A stretch of 64,000 bases of DNA from a virus. Taxonomy: Duplodnaviria > Heunggongvirae > Uroviricota > Caudoviricetes. The notes beneath the pieces were generated by a model that had not been told where the DNA came from, did not search any database, and saw only the letters and a list, made by a program, of their open reading frames with translations. This document shows positions 13,118-37,371 of the stretch, one piece after another. Position 1 is the stretch's first letter. Each line of letters opens with the position of its first letter. The translations under genes and the position numbers were made by a program. The stretch is taken from IMG/VR virus record IMGVR_UViG_2695420859_000012. The stretch is one strand, 5' to 3'.

Positions 13118-13177
13118 AAGCCTGCTTCCGTATATATTTAATAAGTTACTTATTATTTATATATACAGAAGCAGGTC
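13118..13177. repeat. Long AT-centred palindromic element (copy 1 of 2), upstream of the small terminase gene
   Basis: CCTGCTTCCGTATATAT...ATATATACAGAAGCAGG inverted repeat; a near-identical copy lies at about 37312-37371. Confidence 0.6.
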
Positions 13178-18322: not shown

Positions 18323-18787
18323 ATGAAGTCTCCCATACTGTTCACTTTCTGTTCTAAAACTATCATGAAATACTCGCTTCTCCCTCTACTAACGTTACCA
18401 GTGTTGATGCTTACCGCGTGCCAATCACGCCCAATATCAATCCATGACGCCAAACCAGCACCGCAGGCCAAAGTGTTCAAGTATCAAAGCGCAGCGCCAG
18501 CTACGTTGGTGGTAATGAGAGACACAGGTTTTGTAGGAGCTGGATGTGATGCTTCCATTTTCATCAACGGCGAAACTGTCGCAAAACTGGCTACAGGCGA
18601 AAAAGCGACTTTCCATTTAAATGCCGGAGAATTAATTATGGGTGCATCTCTTGAAGGTGCAGGTTTATGTGCTCTAAACCCCGCTCGTCAAGAGCGAGAA
18701 ACGACTCTGAAGAATGGAGACACAAAAGCGTTCAGGGTGTTCACCAGCAATTCTGGTGACATCGACATTCTGCCAACAACTCTGTGA
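18323..18787 (+). CDS. Putative lipoprotein
   Basis: N-terminal hydrophobic segment ending in lipobox-like LTAC (LLPLLTLPVLMLTACQS); GGGAG RBS before the ATG. Confidence 0.5.
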   Translation: MKSPILFTFCSKTIMKYSLLPLLTLPVLMLTACQSRPISIHDAKPAPQAKVFKYQSAAPATLVVMRDTGFVGAGCDASIFINGETVAKLATGEKATFHLNAGELIMGASLEGAGLCALNPARQERETTLKNGDTKAFRVFTSNSGDIDILPTTL

Positions 18788-18791
18788 TGAC

Positions 18792-19316
18792 ATGACAACC
18801 AAAGATATTACCTACGGTATCCAAGCTGAACTCTGGCCGCGAGATTACACTAACGTTGAAAAACTACTGATGTTCTGGCGCAGAGAACAAATTCCTGTAA
18901 GGGTCACTCTCGAAGATGGCCAGGCGTTTTGCATGTACGTTTATGGCCTCATGCCATCTCGTAACAAAGTTGACCTTTGCCCAGCCCCTTTTGACAAAGA
19001 AAATCGTATAAGGCTCCCACTTGAACGCATTAGTACAATTGAATCAGGTGTGGTTGACAGTATCGCTCACGATTTCAAAGGTCGACTAACAGTTCACCCT
19101 GATTATGTCGATAATCGGCCATCACGCCGCGATTTTTTTGCAATTTGCAACCAAGCCTACAAAGCAAACAAATCTATAAGGGTGTACATGGCGGATGGCC
19201 GTGAAATTGAGGGGGTGTCAGCAGGCGCAGATGCTTGTCAGGTTACACTACGTGTCGAGAACGGTAGAAAAATAGTTGTTTTGTTCGATTGGGTTGAACG
19301 AATTTTGCCTTTTTGA
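18792..19316 (+). CDS. Hypothetical protein (175 aa)
   Basis: ORF from the internal Met (MTTKDITY) immediately after the lipoprotein stop; the track ORF begins at 18714 and overlaps. Confidence 0.4.
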   Translation: MTTKDITYGIQAELWPRDYTNVEKLLMFWRREQIPVRVTLEDGQAFCMYVYGLMPSRNKVDLCPAPFDKENRIRLPLERISTIESGVVDSIAHDFKGRLTVHPDYVDNRPSRRDFFAICNQAYKANKSIRVYMADGREIEGVSAGADACQVTLRVENGRKIVVLFDWVERILPF

Positions 19317-19319
19317 GTT

Positions 19320-19628
19320 ATGAAATCGATATTGTTACCACCATTATTTTTACTTTGCTCAGTTACGGCAAATGCAATGGACTATAAGCCTGTCATTCAG
19401 TCGCTGATGAATGACGTGTGCTCAACGTCTCAGAATGTATCAGTTTGCATGTATCAATTTTCGGCAGCCGTAAAAGCAGGAAAAGCGATAGGTGAGAATG
19501 TGGAACTGTGTAAGAAAGTGGCAAATGAAGAAAGGGCAATGTTGGATTGCGAATCTAGCGAGTCATCGGCACAGTTCGTTGATGCGCTATTTGACACCAA
19601 TCGTAAGGCTGTAGAGTCTGTTCAATAA
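19320..19628 (+). CDS. Secreted Cys-containing small protein (hypothetical)
   Basis: Predicted signal peptide (MKSILLPPLFLLCSVTANA), 102 aa, several Cys. Confidence 0.5.
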   Translation: MKSILLPPLFLLCSVTANAMDYKPVIQSLMNDVCSTSQNVSVCMYQFSAAVKAGKAIGENVELCKKVANEERAMLDCESSESSAQFVDALFDTNRKAVESVQ

Positions 19629-19819
19629 ATCTATAAGGTTAATAACCGGCTAAGTCCGGTTATTATTTTTCACATCACTTCTTTATATCTACAAATCAAA
19701 TAACCTAAATATATATAAGGTCTAAAGCCGCAATCGATTATTTATTTAGGGAACACCTTCGACGATCTCGCTTTTATTTCTAGGACTTTCATCCCTGCAA
19801 AAAATTTTAAAAAAACACT

Positions 19820-19850
19820 TGCAATCTATTTTCGCGTATCGATAATTGAA
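19820..19850 (+). promoter_or_regulatory. Sigma70-like promoter for the low-GC cassette
   Basis: TTGCAA - 17 nt - ATAATT upstream of the 19912 gene, followed by an AAGGA RBS. Confidence 0.4.
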
Positions 19851-19911
19851 CTCGTCGAAAGCGAAGACGCTAACGACAATAAATTTTAAATTTACATAAG
19901 GAAAAATTATC

Positions 19912-20562
19912 ATGGCTAACATTATCATTTCTAAAAAATCCATCATTGAAGCTGCTTCCATTGTATCCGATGAACTGCGCGAAAAAGCAGATCTGGCAAC
20001 TCAAACATATAACGAACATTATAAAAATGGTACGCACACTAAAGCAGACAAAGCAAATATGCAAGCTGCGACCACTAAACTTGCTTACTTCATCAACAAC
20101 GTCGTAAACGCAGTAGAAGACGAAAAATTATGCTCTGTTTTCTACTATGCGATTAAAGCAAGCAAACAAGCGCCAGAAGTATTTTTCCGTGATGCAATGA
20201 CTAATAGTTATTCTCTGGAAAAACTGGTTTATCTGGTTAAATCAATTAAATCTGGTAAATGCGTTTATTCCATCGCTGATATGTCAGGATCTCGTGTATT
20301 CGCTTTAATCGATATGATTAACGACGAGATCGACACGTTCACCAATGGCGCTGTTTTCGATTTAATGAATGAAGCTAAAAAAGCGTGCGAAATTAAATTG
20401 GACGCTGGCTATACTCAAGCCAACCAGTTGATCAATCTTTGCGAACGTCTTGGACTTGTTGAGAAAGTCAAAGGAATGGGAAGCGCAAAAGCTGGTACAC
20501 AGCAATATCGCTTTATCAAGAATGATTTCTACAATTATTTAGCTGATGCTTTTAAAGCGTAA
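19912..20562 (+). CDS. Hypothetical protein (216 aa) in low-GC cassette
   Basis: AT-rich coding region with its own promoter-like sequence, RBS and downstream hairpin. Confidence 0.55.
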   Translation: MANIIISKKSIIEAASIVSDELREKADLATQTYNEHYKNGTHTKADKANMQAATTKLAYFINNVVNAVEDEKLCSVFYYAIKASKQAPEVFFRDAMTNSYSLEKLVYLVKSIKSGKCVYSIADMSGSRVFALIDMINDEIDTFTNGAVFDLMNEAKKACEIKLDAGYTQANQLINLCERLGLVEKVKGMGSAKAGTQQYRFIKNDFYNYLADAFKA

Positions 20563-20572
20563 TTAATGGAAT

Positions 20573-20596
20573 CAAGCGCCCACTATGGGCGCTTTA
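20573..20596 (+). terminator. Hairpin (GCGCCCA-CTAT-GGGCGC), weak terminator or RNA structure
   Basis: Same hairpin sequence as the terminator at about 21073; followed by TTTAAAGG rather than a clean U-tract. Confidence 0.35.
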
Positions 20597-20612
20597 AAGG
20601 AGCTTTAAAAAA

Positions 20613-20816
20613 ATGGTCAGCTATGACAAGATCCGCGCAAAGTATCGCGCAAAGTATCGCGCTTATAAACTGGAATTAATCGATGATTTGATCGCGCAAC
20701 GCGACCAATTAAATTTTACGTTTTCTGATTTGCTTAATAGCAAGCGAGATTGCAAGCGCAAACGTGAATACTTACGTTTAAGCGCATTAATCGGAAAACT
20801 TCAAAATTCTATTTAA
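20613..20816 (+). CDS. Small basic protein (67 aa, hypothetical)
   Basis: AAGGAG RBS; Lys/Arg-rich (KIRAKYRAKYRAYK). Confidence 0.45.
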   Translation: MVSYDKIRAKYRAKYRAYKLELIDDLIAQRDQLNFTFSDLLNSKRDCKRKREYLRLSALIGKLQNSI

Positions 20817-20837
20817 TTTTTTTTAAGGAGCTTAATC

Positions 20838-21068
20838 ATGTTTGTTCTTATCGCTGGCGTTAACGTCCATAATGAATATTATGTTAATCGCATCGCTGGG
20901 ATCGCTGGTTACGCTGGGCGCGCAGTCGAGCTTATAGATGAAACGACGCGCAAAATTGACTTATTGAGCGACCAGGAGCGAAAAAAAGCAGACGTGAACG
21001 ACGCTGATATATTTTTAATGTTAAAAGCGTTTGTAGAAATGGGATTTAAAATCAGTTTACACAAATAA
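20838..21068 (+). CDS. Small protein (76 aa, hypothetical)
   Basis: AAGGAG RBS; last gene of the low-GC cassette. Confidence 0.45.
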   Translation: MFVLIAGVNVHNEYYVNRIAGIAGYAGRAVELIDETTRKIDLLSDQERKKADVNDADIFLMLKAFVEMGFKISLHK

Positions 21069-21072
21069 AATC

Positions 21073-21100
21073 GAGCGCCCACTATGGGCGCTTTTTTTCG
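21073..21100 (+). terminator. Rho-independent terminator
   Basis: GAGCGCCCA-CTAT-GGGCGCT hairpin followed by TTTTTTTCGTTT; a second GC hairpin plus T-run follows at about 21120-21150. Confidence 0.7.
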
Positions 21101-21684
21101 TTTCCAATACACCTACCATAACGCGCCATCATTGGCGCGTTTTTATTGTCTTTAACTCACTCCAACAACATAAAAATAAGCGCCAAAATAACGCCATAGA
21201 CGCGCTTTTATATCCTTACCAGTACATGCCCATTACTTAACACATTAACGCGCTTAAAACGCATTATATTGCGCTATAGAGTATGGTTAATCATTGGCTT
21301 TTAGTCTTGCTATGTGATCCGCGTTTATTTGTCGGTGCGGATCGGCATTTTGTTTTGTTCTGTATCCGCTCGCGTATTATGTGCGCGTGATTTTTCACAT
21401 AATCACACCACTTAATCACGTATGTGATTATGCTACGAAAGAAATCTGGATGTCTCAGGCGACGAAAGTCATCATAATTTCCCCCGCTCACCTGTCCGAC
21501 AACCGCTGGTTGGATTCCACCAGCTTCCCGATGTTTTTTCTACACAAAGGCGAATGCAGCCGTTTCCCGAAAAAATCCTGGCCGTTCCCCGTCGGCTCAT
21601 GAATACGTTCCTCGCCGTTTCTGAAAATTTCCCTGCGGCAGCTGGTGGCTATAGAGAAAGGGCCGTTTCTGGCCCTCTTCTCAG

Positions 21685-22167
21685 TTACACGCCATCAAGG
21701 ATGTGGATGCGGTTGCTTGCGTATACATTCAGCATAAAGTTAGCGCAAAACAGTTTCCATGTATCAACGCCAGCGGTATACGTAATGTTTTTGCATTTAA
21801 TTGCATTGTTGGCGATCCGCATCCCCTGCGATACTGCTTCATCGTCGGAAAATTTGAACGACGATTGAGTTTTAATCCAGACAGAAATCTGCGTAGCGAA
21901 CTCAATCAGCTTGGACTGGCAGAATCGCCCGGAGCGCACCGGAAAGACGAACGTTCCGAATCCAGAATTTACCACATATGCTTTCTCAAATACCCGCGAG
22001 TAACGACGATTGCCAATGATGTCGCGTGCAATAATGCATTTTTCTTGTGCTGACAGTTCTACCGTCTCATTGTCGCGCCATGCACCAAGTACTCGTTTTT
22101 CAATGTCAGAGAACGTTACAGCGATATTGCCATGTGCGGGTGCGTTTACAGTAGCGATAAAATTCAT
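21685..22167 (-). CDS. Hypothetical protein (160 aa)
   Basis: ORF preceded by an AAGGA RBS and the conserved AACAAnTTGTTTTCT upstream element. Confidence 0.5.
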   Translation of the reverse strand: MNFIATVNAPAHGNIAVTFSDIEKRVLGAWRDNETVELSAQEKCIIARDIIGNRRYSRVFEKAYVVNSGFGTFVFPVRSGRFCQSKLIEFATQISVWIKTQSSFKFSDDEAVSQGMRIANNAIKCKNITYTAGVDTWKLFCANFMLNVYASNRIHILDGV

Positions 22168-22517
22168 GATTAATTCCTTATCGTAAATAACAAATTGTTT
22201 TCTTGTTGGTGTTAATTATCGTTGTACGAATAAGGCGTCAAAGTGGAAAGTTGCGGTAGCCGGACGGGAACAGGTGGGTTTGTCGGTTGCCTGGAGGTAA
22301 GAGGTTGGTGTTATTAGCCTGAGGGAAACAGGATGGTCATTTAAGACCACCAATGCTGGTGGCCTTAATAATTATCGCCCGATTACGCTAAGGATCTTTT
22401 CCTCAACTGATTTGTTGTTGCGACTAAACTGCCTTGCGTATCTGATGACAGAAGAGGCGTTTTGCTTTCTGACCATCTCGGCTCTTTCCTTCAGGCGTTT
22501 CTTGAAATCGCCCATAT

Positions 22518-27016: not shown

Positions 27017-29050
27017 TTACTTAACCTGGTGGCCAGGTTTAGCACCAGCATCCGGGCTTAACAGGAAGATATCTTTCCCGCCGGGGCCAGCAGCCATCAC
27101 CATGCCTTCAGAGATACCGAAGCGCATTTTACGTGGTGCCAGGTTAGCCACCATAATGGTGTGACGACCAATCAGTGCCTGTGGATCTGGATAAGCGGAA
27201 CGGATGCCTGAGAAGACATTACGCTTTTCACCACCGAGATCCAGCGTCAGGCGAAGCAGTTTGTCAGAACCTTCTACAAACTCTGCGTTTTCAATCAGCG
27301 CCACGCGCAGGTCAACTTTGGCGAAGTCGTCAAAGGTGATAGTTTCCTGAATCGGGTCGTCAGCCAGTGGGCCAGTTACCGGTGCGGCTGTGGCTTTCAC
27401 TTCTTCTTTGGATGCTTCCACCAGTGCTTCAACCTGCTTCATATCGATGCGGTTATACAGTGCCTTGAACGGATTCACTTTATGGCCCAGCAGCGGTTGC
27501 TGGATACCATCCCAGGTCAGTTCTGTATTCAGGAATGCTTCTGCACGTTCAGTCAGTTTCGGCAGTACCGGTTTCAGGTACGTCATCAGCACGCGGAACA
27601 GGTTAATGCCCATAGAGCAAATCGCCTGCAGATCGGCATCGCGTCCTTCCTGCTTTGCCACCACCCACGGAGCCTGTTCATCAACATAGCGGTTAGCCAG
27701 GTCAGCCAGTGCCATGATTTCACGGATAGCTTTGCCAAATTCGCGGCTTTCCCATGCTTCGCCAATCACTTCAGCGGCATCAGTAAAGGTTTTGTACAGT
27801 TGCGGGTCAGCCAGTTCGCTTGCCAGCACGCCGTCAAAACGCTTGTTGATAAAGCCTGCATTACGGGAGGCCAGGTTAACCACTTTGTTAACGATATCGG
27901 CATTCACACGCTGAACGAAATCTTCCAGGTTGAGATCGATATCATCAATGCGCGAAGAGAGTTTCGCAGTGTAGTAGTAACGCAGGCTGTCGGCGTCAAA
28001 ATGATTCAGCCAGGTGCTGGCTTTAATAAAGGTGCCGCGAGACTTGGACATCTTCGCGCCGTTCACCGTCACATAGCCGTGAACAAACAGGTTGGTCGGC
28101 TTGCGGAAGTTGCTGCCTTCCAGCATGGCAGGCCAGAACAGGCTGTGGAAGTAAACGATATCTTTGCCGATGAAGTGGTACAGCTCGGCGGTGGAGTCTT
28201 TCTTCCAGTATTCGTCGAAGCTGGTAGTGTCGCCGCGTTTGTCGCACAGATTCTTGAAGGAACCCATGTAGCCAATCGGCGCGTCCAGCCAGACGTAGAA
28301 GTATTTGCCCGGTGCGTTCGGAATTTCAAAACCGAAGTAAGGTGCGTCACGGGAGATATCCCACTGTTGCAGGCCGGATTCAAACCACTCCTGCATTTTG
28401 TTTGCCACCTGCTCCTGCAACGCACCGCTGCGGGTCCATGCCTGCAACATTTCGCTGAAAGAAGGCAGATCAAAGAAGAAGTGTTCGGAATCACGCATTA
28501 CCGGTGTAGCGCCAGAAACCACTGATTTCGGCTCGATCAGTTCCGTCGGGCTGTATGTCGCGCCGCAGACTTCACAGTTATCGCCGTATTGATCCGGCGC
28601 TTTACATTTCGGGCATGTGCCTTTTACAAAACGGTCCGGCAGGAACATGCCTTTTTCCGGGTCGTACAGCTGAGAGATGGTGCGGTTTTTAATAAAACCG
28701 TTCTCTTTCAGGCGAGTATAGATAAGCTCGGACAACTGACGGTTCTCTTCGCTGTGCGTCGAGTGATAGTTGTCATAGCTGATGTTAAAGCCTGCGAAAT
28801 CAGTCTGATGTTCCTGACTCATTTCGCCAATCATCTGTTCCGGTGTGATACCAAGCTGCTGTGCTTTCAGCATGATTGGCGTACCGTGGGCATCGTCGGC
28901 ACAGATGAAATTAACCTCGTGGCCGCGCATTCGCTGGTAACGAACCCAGACATCAGCCTGGATGTGCTCCAGCATATGGCCGAGGTGGATTGAGCCGTTA
29001 GCGTACGGCAGCGCGCACGTCACCAGAATTTTCTTCGCGACTTGGGTCAT
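27017..29050 (-). CDS. metG: Methionine--tRNA ligase (host-type, near-identical to E. coli MetG by recall)
   Basis: 677-aa protein from [29 protein letters not shown] with HLGH and KMSKS (GAKMSKSRG) class I signatures, C4 zinc knuckle and C-terminal tRNA-binding domain. The track ORF extends 43 codons further upstream to 29179. Confidence 0.95.
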
Positions 29051-29207
29051 AGTAGGCATTACTTCTTTGTAGTGAAAAGGGGCTTGATAGTAACAAAATG
29101 GCCTTATGTCTGCCATGTGATAACAGCATTTCTCATAAATGATTAAATGTCGTAGCTGGAGTACACTACAAGGCGACAATTGCGCAAATTAAAATAAAGG
29201 AGACGGG

Positions 29208-30308
29208 ATGAGCGAGTCCAAATCGCCGGATGCCCTGAGAGCAATGGTAGCCGGTACGCTGGCTAATTTTCAGCACCCAACCCTGAAACACAACCTGACT
29301 ACGCTTAAAGCGTTACACCATGTTGCGTTGATGGATGACACACTGCATGTCGAACTAATCATGCCTTTCGTGTGGAATAAGCCTTTTGAAGACCTGAAAG
29401 AGCAATGTAGTGGTGATCTGCTACGTATCACTGGCGCAAAGGCTATTGACTGGAAGCTGTCGTACAACATTGCCACGCTTAAGCGCGTCAAAAACCAACC
29501 AGGCATTAATGGCGTTAAGAACATTATCGCCGTCAGCTCAGGCAAGGGCGGCGTGGGTAAATCCTCCACGGCGGTAAACCTGGCACTGGCGTTGGCTGCT
29601 GAAGGTGCGAAAGTTGGTATTTTGGATGCCGATATCTATGGTCCATCAATTCCAACCATGCTGGGCGCGGAAAACCAACGTCCAACCTCACCGGACGGTA
29701 CTCACATGGCACCTATCATGTCTCATGGCCTGGCAACCAACTCTATTGGTTATCTGGTCACCGACGACAATGCAATGGTGTGGCGTGGACCGATGGCCAG
29801 CAAGGCGCTGATGCAGATGTTGCAGGAAACACTGTGGCCTGATCTGGACTATCTCGTTCTCGATATGCCACCGGGCACTGGTGATATTCAATTGACGCTG
29901 GCGCAGAACATTCCTGTAACTGGTGCGGTTGTGGTAACTACGCCGCAAGACATCGCGCTGATCGATGCGAAGAAAGGCATTGTGATGTTCGAAAAAGTCG
30001 AAGTGCCGGTACTGGGTATCGTTGAAAACATGAGTGTGCATATTTGCAGTAACTGCGGTCATCACGAGCCAATTTTTGGCACCGGTGGCGCACAGAAACT
30101 GGCCGAGAAATACAACACGCAGTTGTTAGGCCAAATGCCACTTCATATCTCTCTTCGTGAAGATCTGGATAACGGAACACCAACCGTTATTAGTCGTCCA
30201 GATAGTGAATTTACGGCTATTTATCGTGACCTCGCAGATCGCGTTGCTGCCCAAATGTATTGGCAAGGTGAAGTAATACCTGGCGAAATCGCATTCCGCG
30301 CAGTGTGA
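29208..30308 (+). CDS. apbC: Fe-S cluster carrier ATPase Mrp/ApbC (host-type)
   Basis: P-loop ([20 protein letters not shown]), conserved CxxC (CSNCGHHEP); divergently arranged with metG as in enterobacterial chromosomes. Confidence 0.95.
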
Positions 30309-37311: not shown

Positions 37312-37371
37312 CAGCCTGCTTCCGTATATTAATAATTAATATGTAGTTATTTATATATACAGAAGCAGGCT
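37312..37371. repeat. Long AT-centred palindromic element (copy 2 of 2)
   Basis: AGCCTGCTTCCGTATATTAATAATTAATATGTAGTTATTTATATATACAGAAGCAGGCT, near-identical arms to the element at 13118-13177. Confidence 0.6.

Follow-up and report, generated by a model that had tools for sequence, protein, structure and literature searches.

A conserved, self-contained and probably lytic-phase gene unit of SSU5/pHCM2/pMT1-type phage-plasmids

The 64,000-nucleotide stretch of tailed-phage DNA analysed here (IMG/VR record IMGVR_UViG_2695420859_000012, called the window below) carries at 19640 to 21150 an AT-rich segment with three forward genes, named A, B, and C. The 1.5-kb segment is 100% identical to the Escherichia coli plasmid pSJC33-2 (NZ_CP080257.1) and shows 81 to 97% identity to phage SSU5, the phage-plasmid Cyrano, and hundreds of non-mobilizable plasmids of ∼105 to 115 kb. 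On account of these identities, the window can be assigned to an E. coli phage-plasmid of the SSU5/pHCM2/pMT1 type. The unit is found in 240 of 5,426 complete E. coli genomes (4.4%), each time on a plasmid. SSU5-like phage-plasmids are common in clinical Enterobacterales, with pHCM2 of S. Typhi and pMT1 of Y. pestis among them, and carry resistance genes; their regulation is almost unstudied. The evidence presented here indicates that gene A belongs to the core of this family and that its promoter, silent in a related lysogen, probably serves the lytic phase.

Genes and features of the locus

Virion and packaging genes on the minus strand lie to the left of the unit. A plus-strand block consisting, in order, of genes for a UvsW-like helicase, a small open reading frame (ORF), a lipoprotein, an FljA-like protein, and a 102-aa secreted protein stops just 5' of the segment. 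To the right, a long minus-strand block of DNA-metabolism genes is convergent with the unit. The features of the unit and its borders are as follows.

19640 to 19665, plus strand: stem-loop TAATAACCGG-CTAAGT-CCGGTTATTA followed by TTTTT, intrinsic terminator of the preceding gene (102-aa ORF, 19320 to 19628)
19712 to 19721, plus strand: conserved block 1, ATATATAAGG
19742 to 19757, plus strand: conserved block 2, TTATTTAGGGAACACC
19774 to 19789, plus strand: conserved block 3, TTATTTCTAGGACTTT; the three blocks are ∼30 bp apart
19798 to 19846, plus strand: promoter, with an UP-element-like A/T tract (19798 to 19817), a -35 element TTGCAA (19819 to 19824), a 16-nt spacer, and a -10 element GATAAT (19841 to 19846)
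19854 to 19877, plus strand: leader dyad (5'-proximal stem-loop) GTCGAAAGCG-AAGA-CGCTAACGAC, directly 3' of the -10 element
19912 to 20562, plus strand: gene A, 216 aa
20573 to 20594 (core 20576 to 20592), plus strand: proximal hairpin, with only TTT after the stem and then the ribosome-binding site of gene B
20613 to 20816, plus strand: gene B, 67 aa
20838 to 21068, plus strand: gene C, 76 aa
21073 to 21100 (core 21075 to 21091), plus strand: distal hairpin, with a 9-bp stem and a T7 tract, the predicted real intrinsic terminator of the unit
21120 to 21141, plus strand: second, tandem terminator hairpin, AACGCGCCATCATTGGCGCGTT followed by TTTTAT; -15.7 kcal/mol, z = -4.9; conserved in relatives

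The three forward genes were correctly recognized in the initial annotation as having good ribosome-binding sites and no recognized domains. The Shine-Dalgarno sequences are AAGGA with a 9-nt spacer for gene A, AAGGAG with 10 nt for gene B, and AAGGAG with 7 nt for gene C. Differences from relatives at codon positions 1, 2, and 3 number 26, 13, and 79 for gene A, 8, 4, and 25 for gene B, and 3, 2, and 7 for gene C. Because the substitutions pile up at third positions, A and B can be regarded as real genes under purifying selection; gene C is consistent with this, but its differences are few. Searches of Pfam, NCBIfam, and PADLOC with the three proteins matched no family, and PADLOC gave no match for them or for the neighboring proteins at an E value of ≤1. 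Matches in PHROGs came without a credible function: phrog_1513 and phrog_1585 are listed as "unknown," and phrog_6145, matched by gene B, is labeled "MIT metal ion transporter." This label for an MIT family metal ion transporter was rejected as implausible for gene B, which encodes a 67-aa soluble basic protein.

Conservation and composition of gene A

A search with tblastn found gene A in 815 PLSDB plasmids, compared to ∼802 with the closely related large terminase. The two genes occur in nearly equal numbers in each genus, with counts of A and terminase of 346 and 342 in Klebsiella, 217 and 206 in Escherichia, 91 and 90 in Enterobacter, 62 and 62 in Yersinia, 49 and 50 in Salmonella, and 25 and 25 in Citrobacter. 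All 62 Yersinia plasmids of the Y. pestis pMT1 type carry gene A. The order of the locus is also shared in the family: the helicase gene, a small ORF, variable genes, the FljA-like gene, a gap of ∼300 bp, gene A, and a convergent gene for a 160-aa protein. This synteny is the same in SSU5, in pMT1, in Klebsiella, in a Klebsiella lineage with 50% identity, in a Pectobacterium plasmid, and in a metagenomic contig of 109 kb, whose promoter architecture is that of the window; in one Serratia-like lineage, the gene A locus is rearranged. The gene family is narrow, with 23 representative clusters in 1.84 billion proteins, nearly all of them on contigs of ∼105 to 115 kb. The loci of two distant homologs of gene A (P0106 and P0108) were not located in IMG/VR. 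From this distribution, gene A is best regarded as a core, family-wide gene of SSU5/pHCM2/pMT1-type phage-plasmids.

Gene A was also found, at 85 to 91% identity to the enterobacterial version, on contigs labeled "Bacillota bacterium MAG" and "Finegoldia magna MAG" (metagenome-assembled genomes; L009, JAEWTL010000044.1; protein P0091). These are most likely mis-binned phage-plasmid contigs rather than signs of a host jump.

The segment is more AT-rich than its surroundings, as was noticed at the outset. The G+C (GC) content of 19640 to 21150 is 0.375, compared to a window mean of 0.463 (z = -3.15), and the lowest-GC stretch of 1,511 nt in the whole 64 kb lies at 19611 to 21121. Gene A itself, with a GC content of 0.38, is lowest among the 64 ORFs of ≥100 aa in the window. 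In relatives, gene A shows values of 0.38 to 0.41, compared to 0.43 to 0.50 for the surrounding locus, and in Pectobacterium, 0.317 compared to 0.371. The low GC content thus appears to be old and maintained. The codon adaptation index (CAI) of gene A is 0.431, sixth of the 64 ORFs (mean, 0.306; standard deviation, 0.088), which groups it with the capsid gene (0.606), a tail gene (0.455), and a capsid-adjacent ORF (0.439). To judge from its codons, the low GC content of gene A largely reflects AT-ending optimal codons (GCT, AAA, GAA, TCT, ACT, GTT, and CGT) together with a composition rich in lysine, asparagine, and isoleucine.

These results bear directly on the interpretation given in the initial annotation, in which the segment was a moron cassette gained by horizontal transfer, with expression in the carrier state and a role in exclusion, anti-defense, or abortive infection. 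Such a cassette would have its own promoter and terminators, as found here, and the unit has the lowest GC content of the window; B and C are variably present, and small orphan proteins are typical of these functions. The compositional difference is real, yet it is common to all relatives and paired with host-optimal codons, and therefore it is no sign of recent acquisition. The proposed comparison of presence and absence divides the unit, since gene A occurs about once per terminase gene in each genus, whereas B and C vary. With gene A core, syntenic, equally AT-rich in all relatives, and host-adapted in its codon usage, such a moron cassette is held to be very improbable, also with regard to the expression data described below.

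Promoter, upstream blocks, and leader

A hairpin lies at the start initially given for the segment (19640) and belongs to the preceding gene as its terminator. The stem-loop has a fold energy of -12.6 kcal/mol (z = -3.8) and is kept in relatives. Gene A then has its own promoter, and with one terminator upstream and two downstream, the autonomous appearance of the unit is borne out by sequence and conservation. The sigma70-like promoter proposed earlier also stands, though a scan match alone proves nothing: a generic promoter scan found 12 sites, compared to 11.7 expected in shuffles. Among 52 distinct variants from relatives, every one retains the two hexamers, the distance between them, and the upstream A/T tract, while the spacer sequence varies freely. 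This conservation of hexamers and spacing beside a changing spacer supports TTGCAA-16 nt-GATAAT as a real sigma70-type promoter.

The upstream region is conserved beyond the promoter. Compared with the most distant relatives, the 250 nt upstream of gene A are 66 to 69% identical and the coding sequence is 60 to 62% identical. Blocks 1 to 3 are present in 13 of 14 diverse relatives, some of them with a protein A of only ∼33% identity, and are candidate protein-binding sites. The leader stem-loop is unexceptional when folded as a single sequence (-9.9 kcal/mol; z of only -1.3). A stem-loop is predicted at this position in 12 of 12 diverse relatives, however, with a different sequence in three of them; 85% of the cells are paired, and four of eight pairs are changed on both sides. 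None of 500 shuffles had a covariation score as high as the observed one, and 1 of 500 had as many pairs with changes on both sides. Relatives whose protein A is only 30 to 50% identical still conserve the promoter, the three blocks, and the 5' stem-loop. A search of the 113-kb plasmid for a shared operator or regulon gave no further copies of the blocks, the leader dyad, or the hairpin, and because none of them recurs elsewhere in the plasmid, these control motifs appear to be private to the gene A promoter. An Rfam scan of 19000 to 22300 at an E value of ≤5 gave two chance-level matches only and no known RNA family.

Expression in the Cyrano lysogen

Misson et al. re-analysed RNA sequencing (RNA-seq) data of E. 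coli LF82 carrying the phage-plasmid Cyrano (PMC9928086). Cyrano is 91% identical to the window at the unit and has A (CYRAN_113) and C (CYRAN_112) without B. In LB stationary phase, the values of log2(FPKM + 5), where FPKM stands for fragments per kilobase per million, are 2.78 and 2.32 for CYRAN_113 and 2.32 and 2.32 for CYRAN_112, with a zero floor of 2.32 (PMC9928086, S1 Table). Both genes are also at the floor in the B1, B6, and MB1 samples (PMC9928086). The upstream genes CYRAN_118, CYRAN_117, CYRAN_115, and CYRAN_114 show 46, 114, 29, and 18 normalized counts, compared to a median of 9.8 (PMC9928086). With the upstream genes expressed and CYRAN_113 at the floor, two conclusions follow for this relative: the promoter of gene A is off in the carrier state, and the terminator at 19640 to 19665 works in Cyrano and insulates the unit from upstream transcription.

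CYRAN_113 rises only in the MB6 sample, which represents bacteria inside macrophages at 6 h, where it reaches log2 values of 5.5 to 5.7 (PMC9928086). In the same sample, the major capsid gene (7.4 to 7.8), tail genes (7.6 to 8.5), the endolysin gene (5.0 to 5.5), and ParB (5.2) also rise from the floor (PMC9928086). For C as for A, a rise is seen only together with that of lytic genes. This coincidence hints that gene A belongs to the lytic programme.

The expected expression from the prophage or plasmid state is thus contradicted by the lysogen data. The systematic moron screen of the same study names 13 morons in Cyrano, with A and C both absent from the list (PMC9928086). Together with the absence of a PADLOC match, this largely refutes a moron for gene A, and the initial interpretation was largely wrong for this main gene, given its conserved position with matching composition in relatives and its lack of carrier-state expression. 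For genome scans, it follows as a warning that low GC content, a private promoter, and a terminator are insufficient to call a moron.

The silence of a near-consensus promoter could also be due to the host. The 300 nt upstream of gene A have a GC content of 0.31, and xenogeneic silencing by H-NS of this AT-rich, A-tract-rich region, relieved by an anti-silencing event, would account for the silence in place of a phage repressor. In Lang et al. (2007), the motif TCGATAAATT is reportedly a high-affinity site of H-NS. The conserved -10 region TCGATAATT resembles this motif. However, TCGATAATT is one base short of that consensus, and matches with one mismatch are scattered over the plasmid and not enriched. 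Silencing by H-NS as the alternative to a phage repressor is rated as quite unlikely; it would go together with a tightly repressed lytic-phase unit and does not compete with that explanation.

A further candidate for the control of gene A is the FljA-like protein encoded at 18714 to 19316, which might repress A post-transcriptionally via the conserved 5' leader. FljA acts on the 5' untranslated region of fliC. The gene matches PF03614 ("repressor of phase-1 flagellin") with an E value of 2.5e-84, is the conserved upstream neighbor of the unit in most relatives, and in Cyrano is expressed in the lysogen (CYRAN_114); the leader it would act on is conserved. The adjacency is broken in some relatives, though, host flagellin is the more obvious target, and a near-zero mRNA level points to transcriptional silencing. 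Repression by the FljA-like protein is rated as very improbable. As an observation in its own right, the FljA-like protein may repress host flagellin or possibly the leader of gene A.

Hairpins and the slot for genes B and C

Within the window, the 17-mer GCGCCCACTATGGGCGC has exactly two copies, at 20576 to 20592 and 21075 to 21091, with 0 copies expected in shuffles, and there are no others in the whole 113-kb element. The proximal and distal hairpins have fold energies of -15.5 and -16.9 kcal/mol (z = -3.2 and -5.5). The initial annotation described the same hairpin as used twice as a terminator; the two exact copies are confirmed, but the U-tract (T7) is found only at the distal one. By the criterion of a G+C-rich stem-loop followed by a U-tract, the distal copy is an intrinsic terminator, and the proximal copy is one only in part. 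The proximal hairpin lies +10 to +14 nt from the stop codon of gene A in nearly all relatives, and it may act as a partial terminator and 3' stabilizer of the A transcript. The tail TTTTTTCGTTTC after the last hairpin is likewise conserved in relatives.

The 3' end of gene A is complete in 103 loci that were searched with the pattern GCGCCCA-NNN-TGGGCGC. In 101 of these loci, the hairpin is found downstream of A, with one copy in 22, two in 70, and three in 9. Exact-match scans find it in nearly every relative, even at 50% identity of protein A, while the flanking bases differ. The slots between two hairpins hold B, C, B and C, a C paralog (C'), or a short empty spacer of 27 to 31 nt and no other content. 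With hp for the hairpin, the architectures are A-hp, A-hp-B-hp, A-hp-C-hp, A-hp-B-C-hp (the window), and A-hp-C'-hp-C-hp. The 3-nt loop is CTA in 158 copies and its exact inverse, TAG, in 21, with the stem unchanged (IMG/VR loci L019 to L122). The two orientations suggest loop inversion by template switching or by recombination within the palindrome.

The exact 17-mer was also found at 10 IMG/VR loci unrelated to the unit, of which seven belong to higher-GC phages (0.57 to 0.67); these copies were judged to be chance matches or independent terminators.

Gene B encodes a very basic protein (isoelectric point [pI] of 9.9) and is present in 517 PLSDB plasmids, none of them from Yersinia. Gene C, which matches phrog_1585, is present in 374, with a 51%-identical variant in pMT1, and its homologs occur almost solely on contigs of phage-plasmid size. 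It is predicted to encode a small α/β protein (AlphaFold2 predicted local distance difference test [pLDDT] score of 82, confident in only one of five models). B and C appear as variable accessory genes, always enclosed by copies of the hairpin. In the simplest view, they were inserted into the terminator of gene A with duplication of the hairpin, and the repeats favor gain and loss.

A more far-reaching proposal takes the palindrome GCGCCCA-NNN-TGGGCGC as a specific recognition or recombination site defining a miniature cassette slot behind A. The winged-helix protein encoded by A or another family-specific factor would bind to it, coupling the regulation of the unit to the exchange of B and C, and the hairpin would be more than a plain terminator. 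In its favor are the loop in both orientations, the identity of copies within a locus while their flanks diverge, and a stem constant over 189 copies, an invariance that is partly by construction since the search pattern requires the stem. The proposal is regarded as a long shot.

The gene A protein

The AlphaFold2 model of protein A is confident (pLDDT score of 91) and shows an N-terminal domain of long helices (about residues 8 to 114) and a predicted C-terminal winged helix (about residues 126 to 213) with the topology H-S-H-H-S-S. The best structural matches for the C-terminal domain are YgaV, PerR, MarR, TubR, and RTP; these are weak and at the domain level only. Neither a specific structural match for the N-terminal helical domain of ∼110 residues nor a whole-protein structural neighbor was found. 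Pfam, NCBIfam, and PDB sequence profiles gave no match to gene A, so it has no membership in the MarR, PadR, or ArsR profiles. The winged-helix half is acidic (pI of 5.0), and the N-terminal half is basic (pI of 8.8). On the basis of the model, DNA binding is plausible but not secure. A literature search found no functional study of gene A.

The predicted fold invites the alternative that gene A encodes a locus-specific regulator, either an autoregulator or a part of a lysis-lysogeny or copy-number switch, with the blocks, the leader dyad, and/or the hairpin as its own binding sites. The restriction of the cis-elements to this one locus is what is expected of sites serving A alone, and their conservation exceeds that of the coding sequence. 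Across relatives whose A proteins differ by 50%, the 17-bp palindrome does not vary, and the occurrence of its loop in both orientations would suit a symmetric site on DNA more than an ordinary terminator. An autorepressed gene, however, normally has a low but measurable transcript, whereas FPKM values of ∼0 to 2 are seen here at roughly 5.5 plasmid copies per cell. The high codon adaptation speaks for a protein made in stoichiometric rather than in catalytic or regulatory amounts, and the winged helix is acidic. A regulator of this kind is held to be unlikely.

Proposed role of the unit

The preferred explanation, with a probability of roughly 60%, is a conserved, self-contained lytic-phase unit under tight repression, encoding an abundant and probably DNA-binding protein. 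The unit would be kept off during plasmid-prophage life and expressed in a strong burst once the lytic programme runs. Gene A would be the payload, and its abundant synthesis is indicated by the near-consensus sigma70 promoter with its A/T tract, the leader with its 5' stem-loop, the good Shine-Dalgarno sequence, and the host-optimal codons. The hairpin after the stop codon of A probably ends or attenuates most transcripts and protects their 3' end, so that A would be made in excess over B and C. The distal hairpin with its U7 tract and the second hairpin would end the unit. B and C would have been inserted into the terminator region of A, with the duplicated hairpin repeats as a substrate for their gain and loss.

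Several points weigh against this explanation or narrow it. The expression data come from one relative, Cyrano, which lacks B, and one host; the assignment to the lytic phase draws on the joint rise in MB6 and on codon usage, with CAI weights after Sharp and Li (1987). The transcription start near 19853 is a predicted position only. In the 113-kb element, no shared operator was found that links the promoter to a known prophage repressor, as the upstream blocks and the hairpin are unique to the locus. The B-C junction of the window has no hairpin, and not every junction is thus hairpin mediated. DNA binding by protein A is uncertain with an acidic winged helix and weak, domain-level structural matches. 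The winged-helix fold also serves protein-protein contacts.

Family-specific core genes that lie outside the modules for structure and replication are few, and the gene A unit is one of them, with unusually well-conserved control DNA. Fully silent in the one lysogen with data, it offers a concrete entry point to the switch from plasmid to lytic growth.

Neighboring elements

A 616-bp non-coding gap (21069 to 21684) between the convergent units is kept across the family. It holds the perfect palindrome TAATCAC-GTAT-GTGATTA at 21413 to 21430, three exact GCCGTTTC repeats (21559, 21614, and 21662) with a variant at ∼21581, and an invariant TTTCCCTGCGG block. The GCCGTTTC repeats are iteron-like, and Rfam has no family match there.

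A palindromic element of ∼55 bp, CCTGCTTCTGTATATATAAATAATAAGTAACTTATTAAATATATACGGAAGCAGG, has three copies in the plasmid, at ∼13121 to 13175 and ∼37315 to 37369 of the window and, outside it, at ∼11409 of pSJC33-2. All copies read on the minus strand and precede a leftward operon, one of them lying just 5' of the small-terminase gene. The element may serve as a shared site of regulation (an operator, or a promoter of the late or middle type) or as a terminator.

The window also contains full-length, host-like metG, encoding methionyl-tRNA synthetase (CAI of 0.52), and apbC at 27017 to 29116 and 29208 to 30308. In Cyrano, the apbC-like gene bears the annotation of a septum site-determining protein, and its expression in the lysogen is 9 times the background. 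By far the strongest carrier-state signal of that element is the hypothetical gene CYRAN_43 (OV696614.1, 40268 to 40822), at 723-fold over the prophage background; it is known from Cyrano, and a counterpart was not located in the window.

Comparison with known systems

The unit resembles the morons of temperate phages, in the definition of Juhala and Hendrix used operationally in PMC9928086, in being an autonomous promoter-gene-terminator unit of low GC content with B and C variable between conserved neighbors. It differs from them in that gene A is core and syntenic family-wide, A and C are silent in the lysogen, and the low GC content is shared by all relatives.

In T4-type phages, mobile regulatory cassettes known as PeSLs (promoter-early stem-loop; Arbiol et al., 2010) reportedly consist of a repeated promoter and stem-loop flanking diverse orphan genes at many loci. 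A loose analogy can be drawn to the unit, in which a repeated, near-identical stem-loop surrounds small, variably present orphan genes, suggesting shuffling by recombination between repeats. In contrast to PeSLs, only the stem-loop is repeated here and no promoter, there is one locus per genome, only B-like and C-like families occupy the slot, and recombination is proposed from the arrangement of the copies. An integron-type cassette array with attC sites was rejected, as there is no integrase near the locus, the only annotated one lying at 110909 to 112012 of the record, ∼54 kb away, and as the 17-nt hairpin is far shorter than attC.

The predicted C-terminal H-S-H-H-S-S topology of protein A is similar to that of winged-helix DNA-binding proteins of the MarR, PadR, or ArsR type, TubR, and RTP. 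Unlike these regulators, protein A shows no sequence-profile membership, its predicted winged helix is acidic, and no specific match was found for its N-terminal domain.

Phage genes that are strong but tightly repressed include ant of P22 and the early genes of P1 under C1 control. The gene A unit is like them in its near-consensus promoter that is off in the prophage, its high-output design, and its position outside the structural operons; in contrast to them, no operator or repressor was found for it, and it shares no homology with Ant, Coi, or further known antirepressors. Taken together, the unit is an uncharacterized member of ordinary kinds: phage genes for regulation or DNA binding, intrinsic terminators, and small genes that behave as modules.

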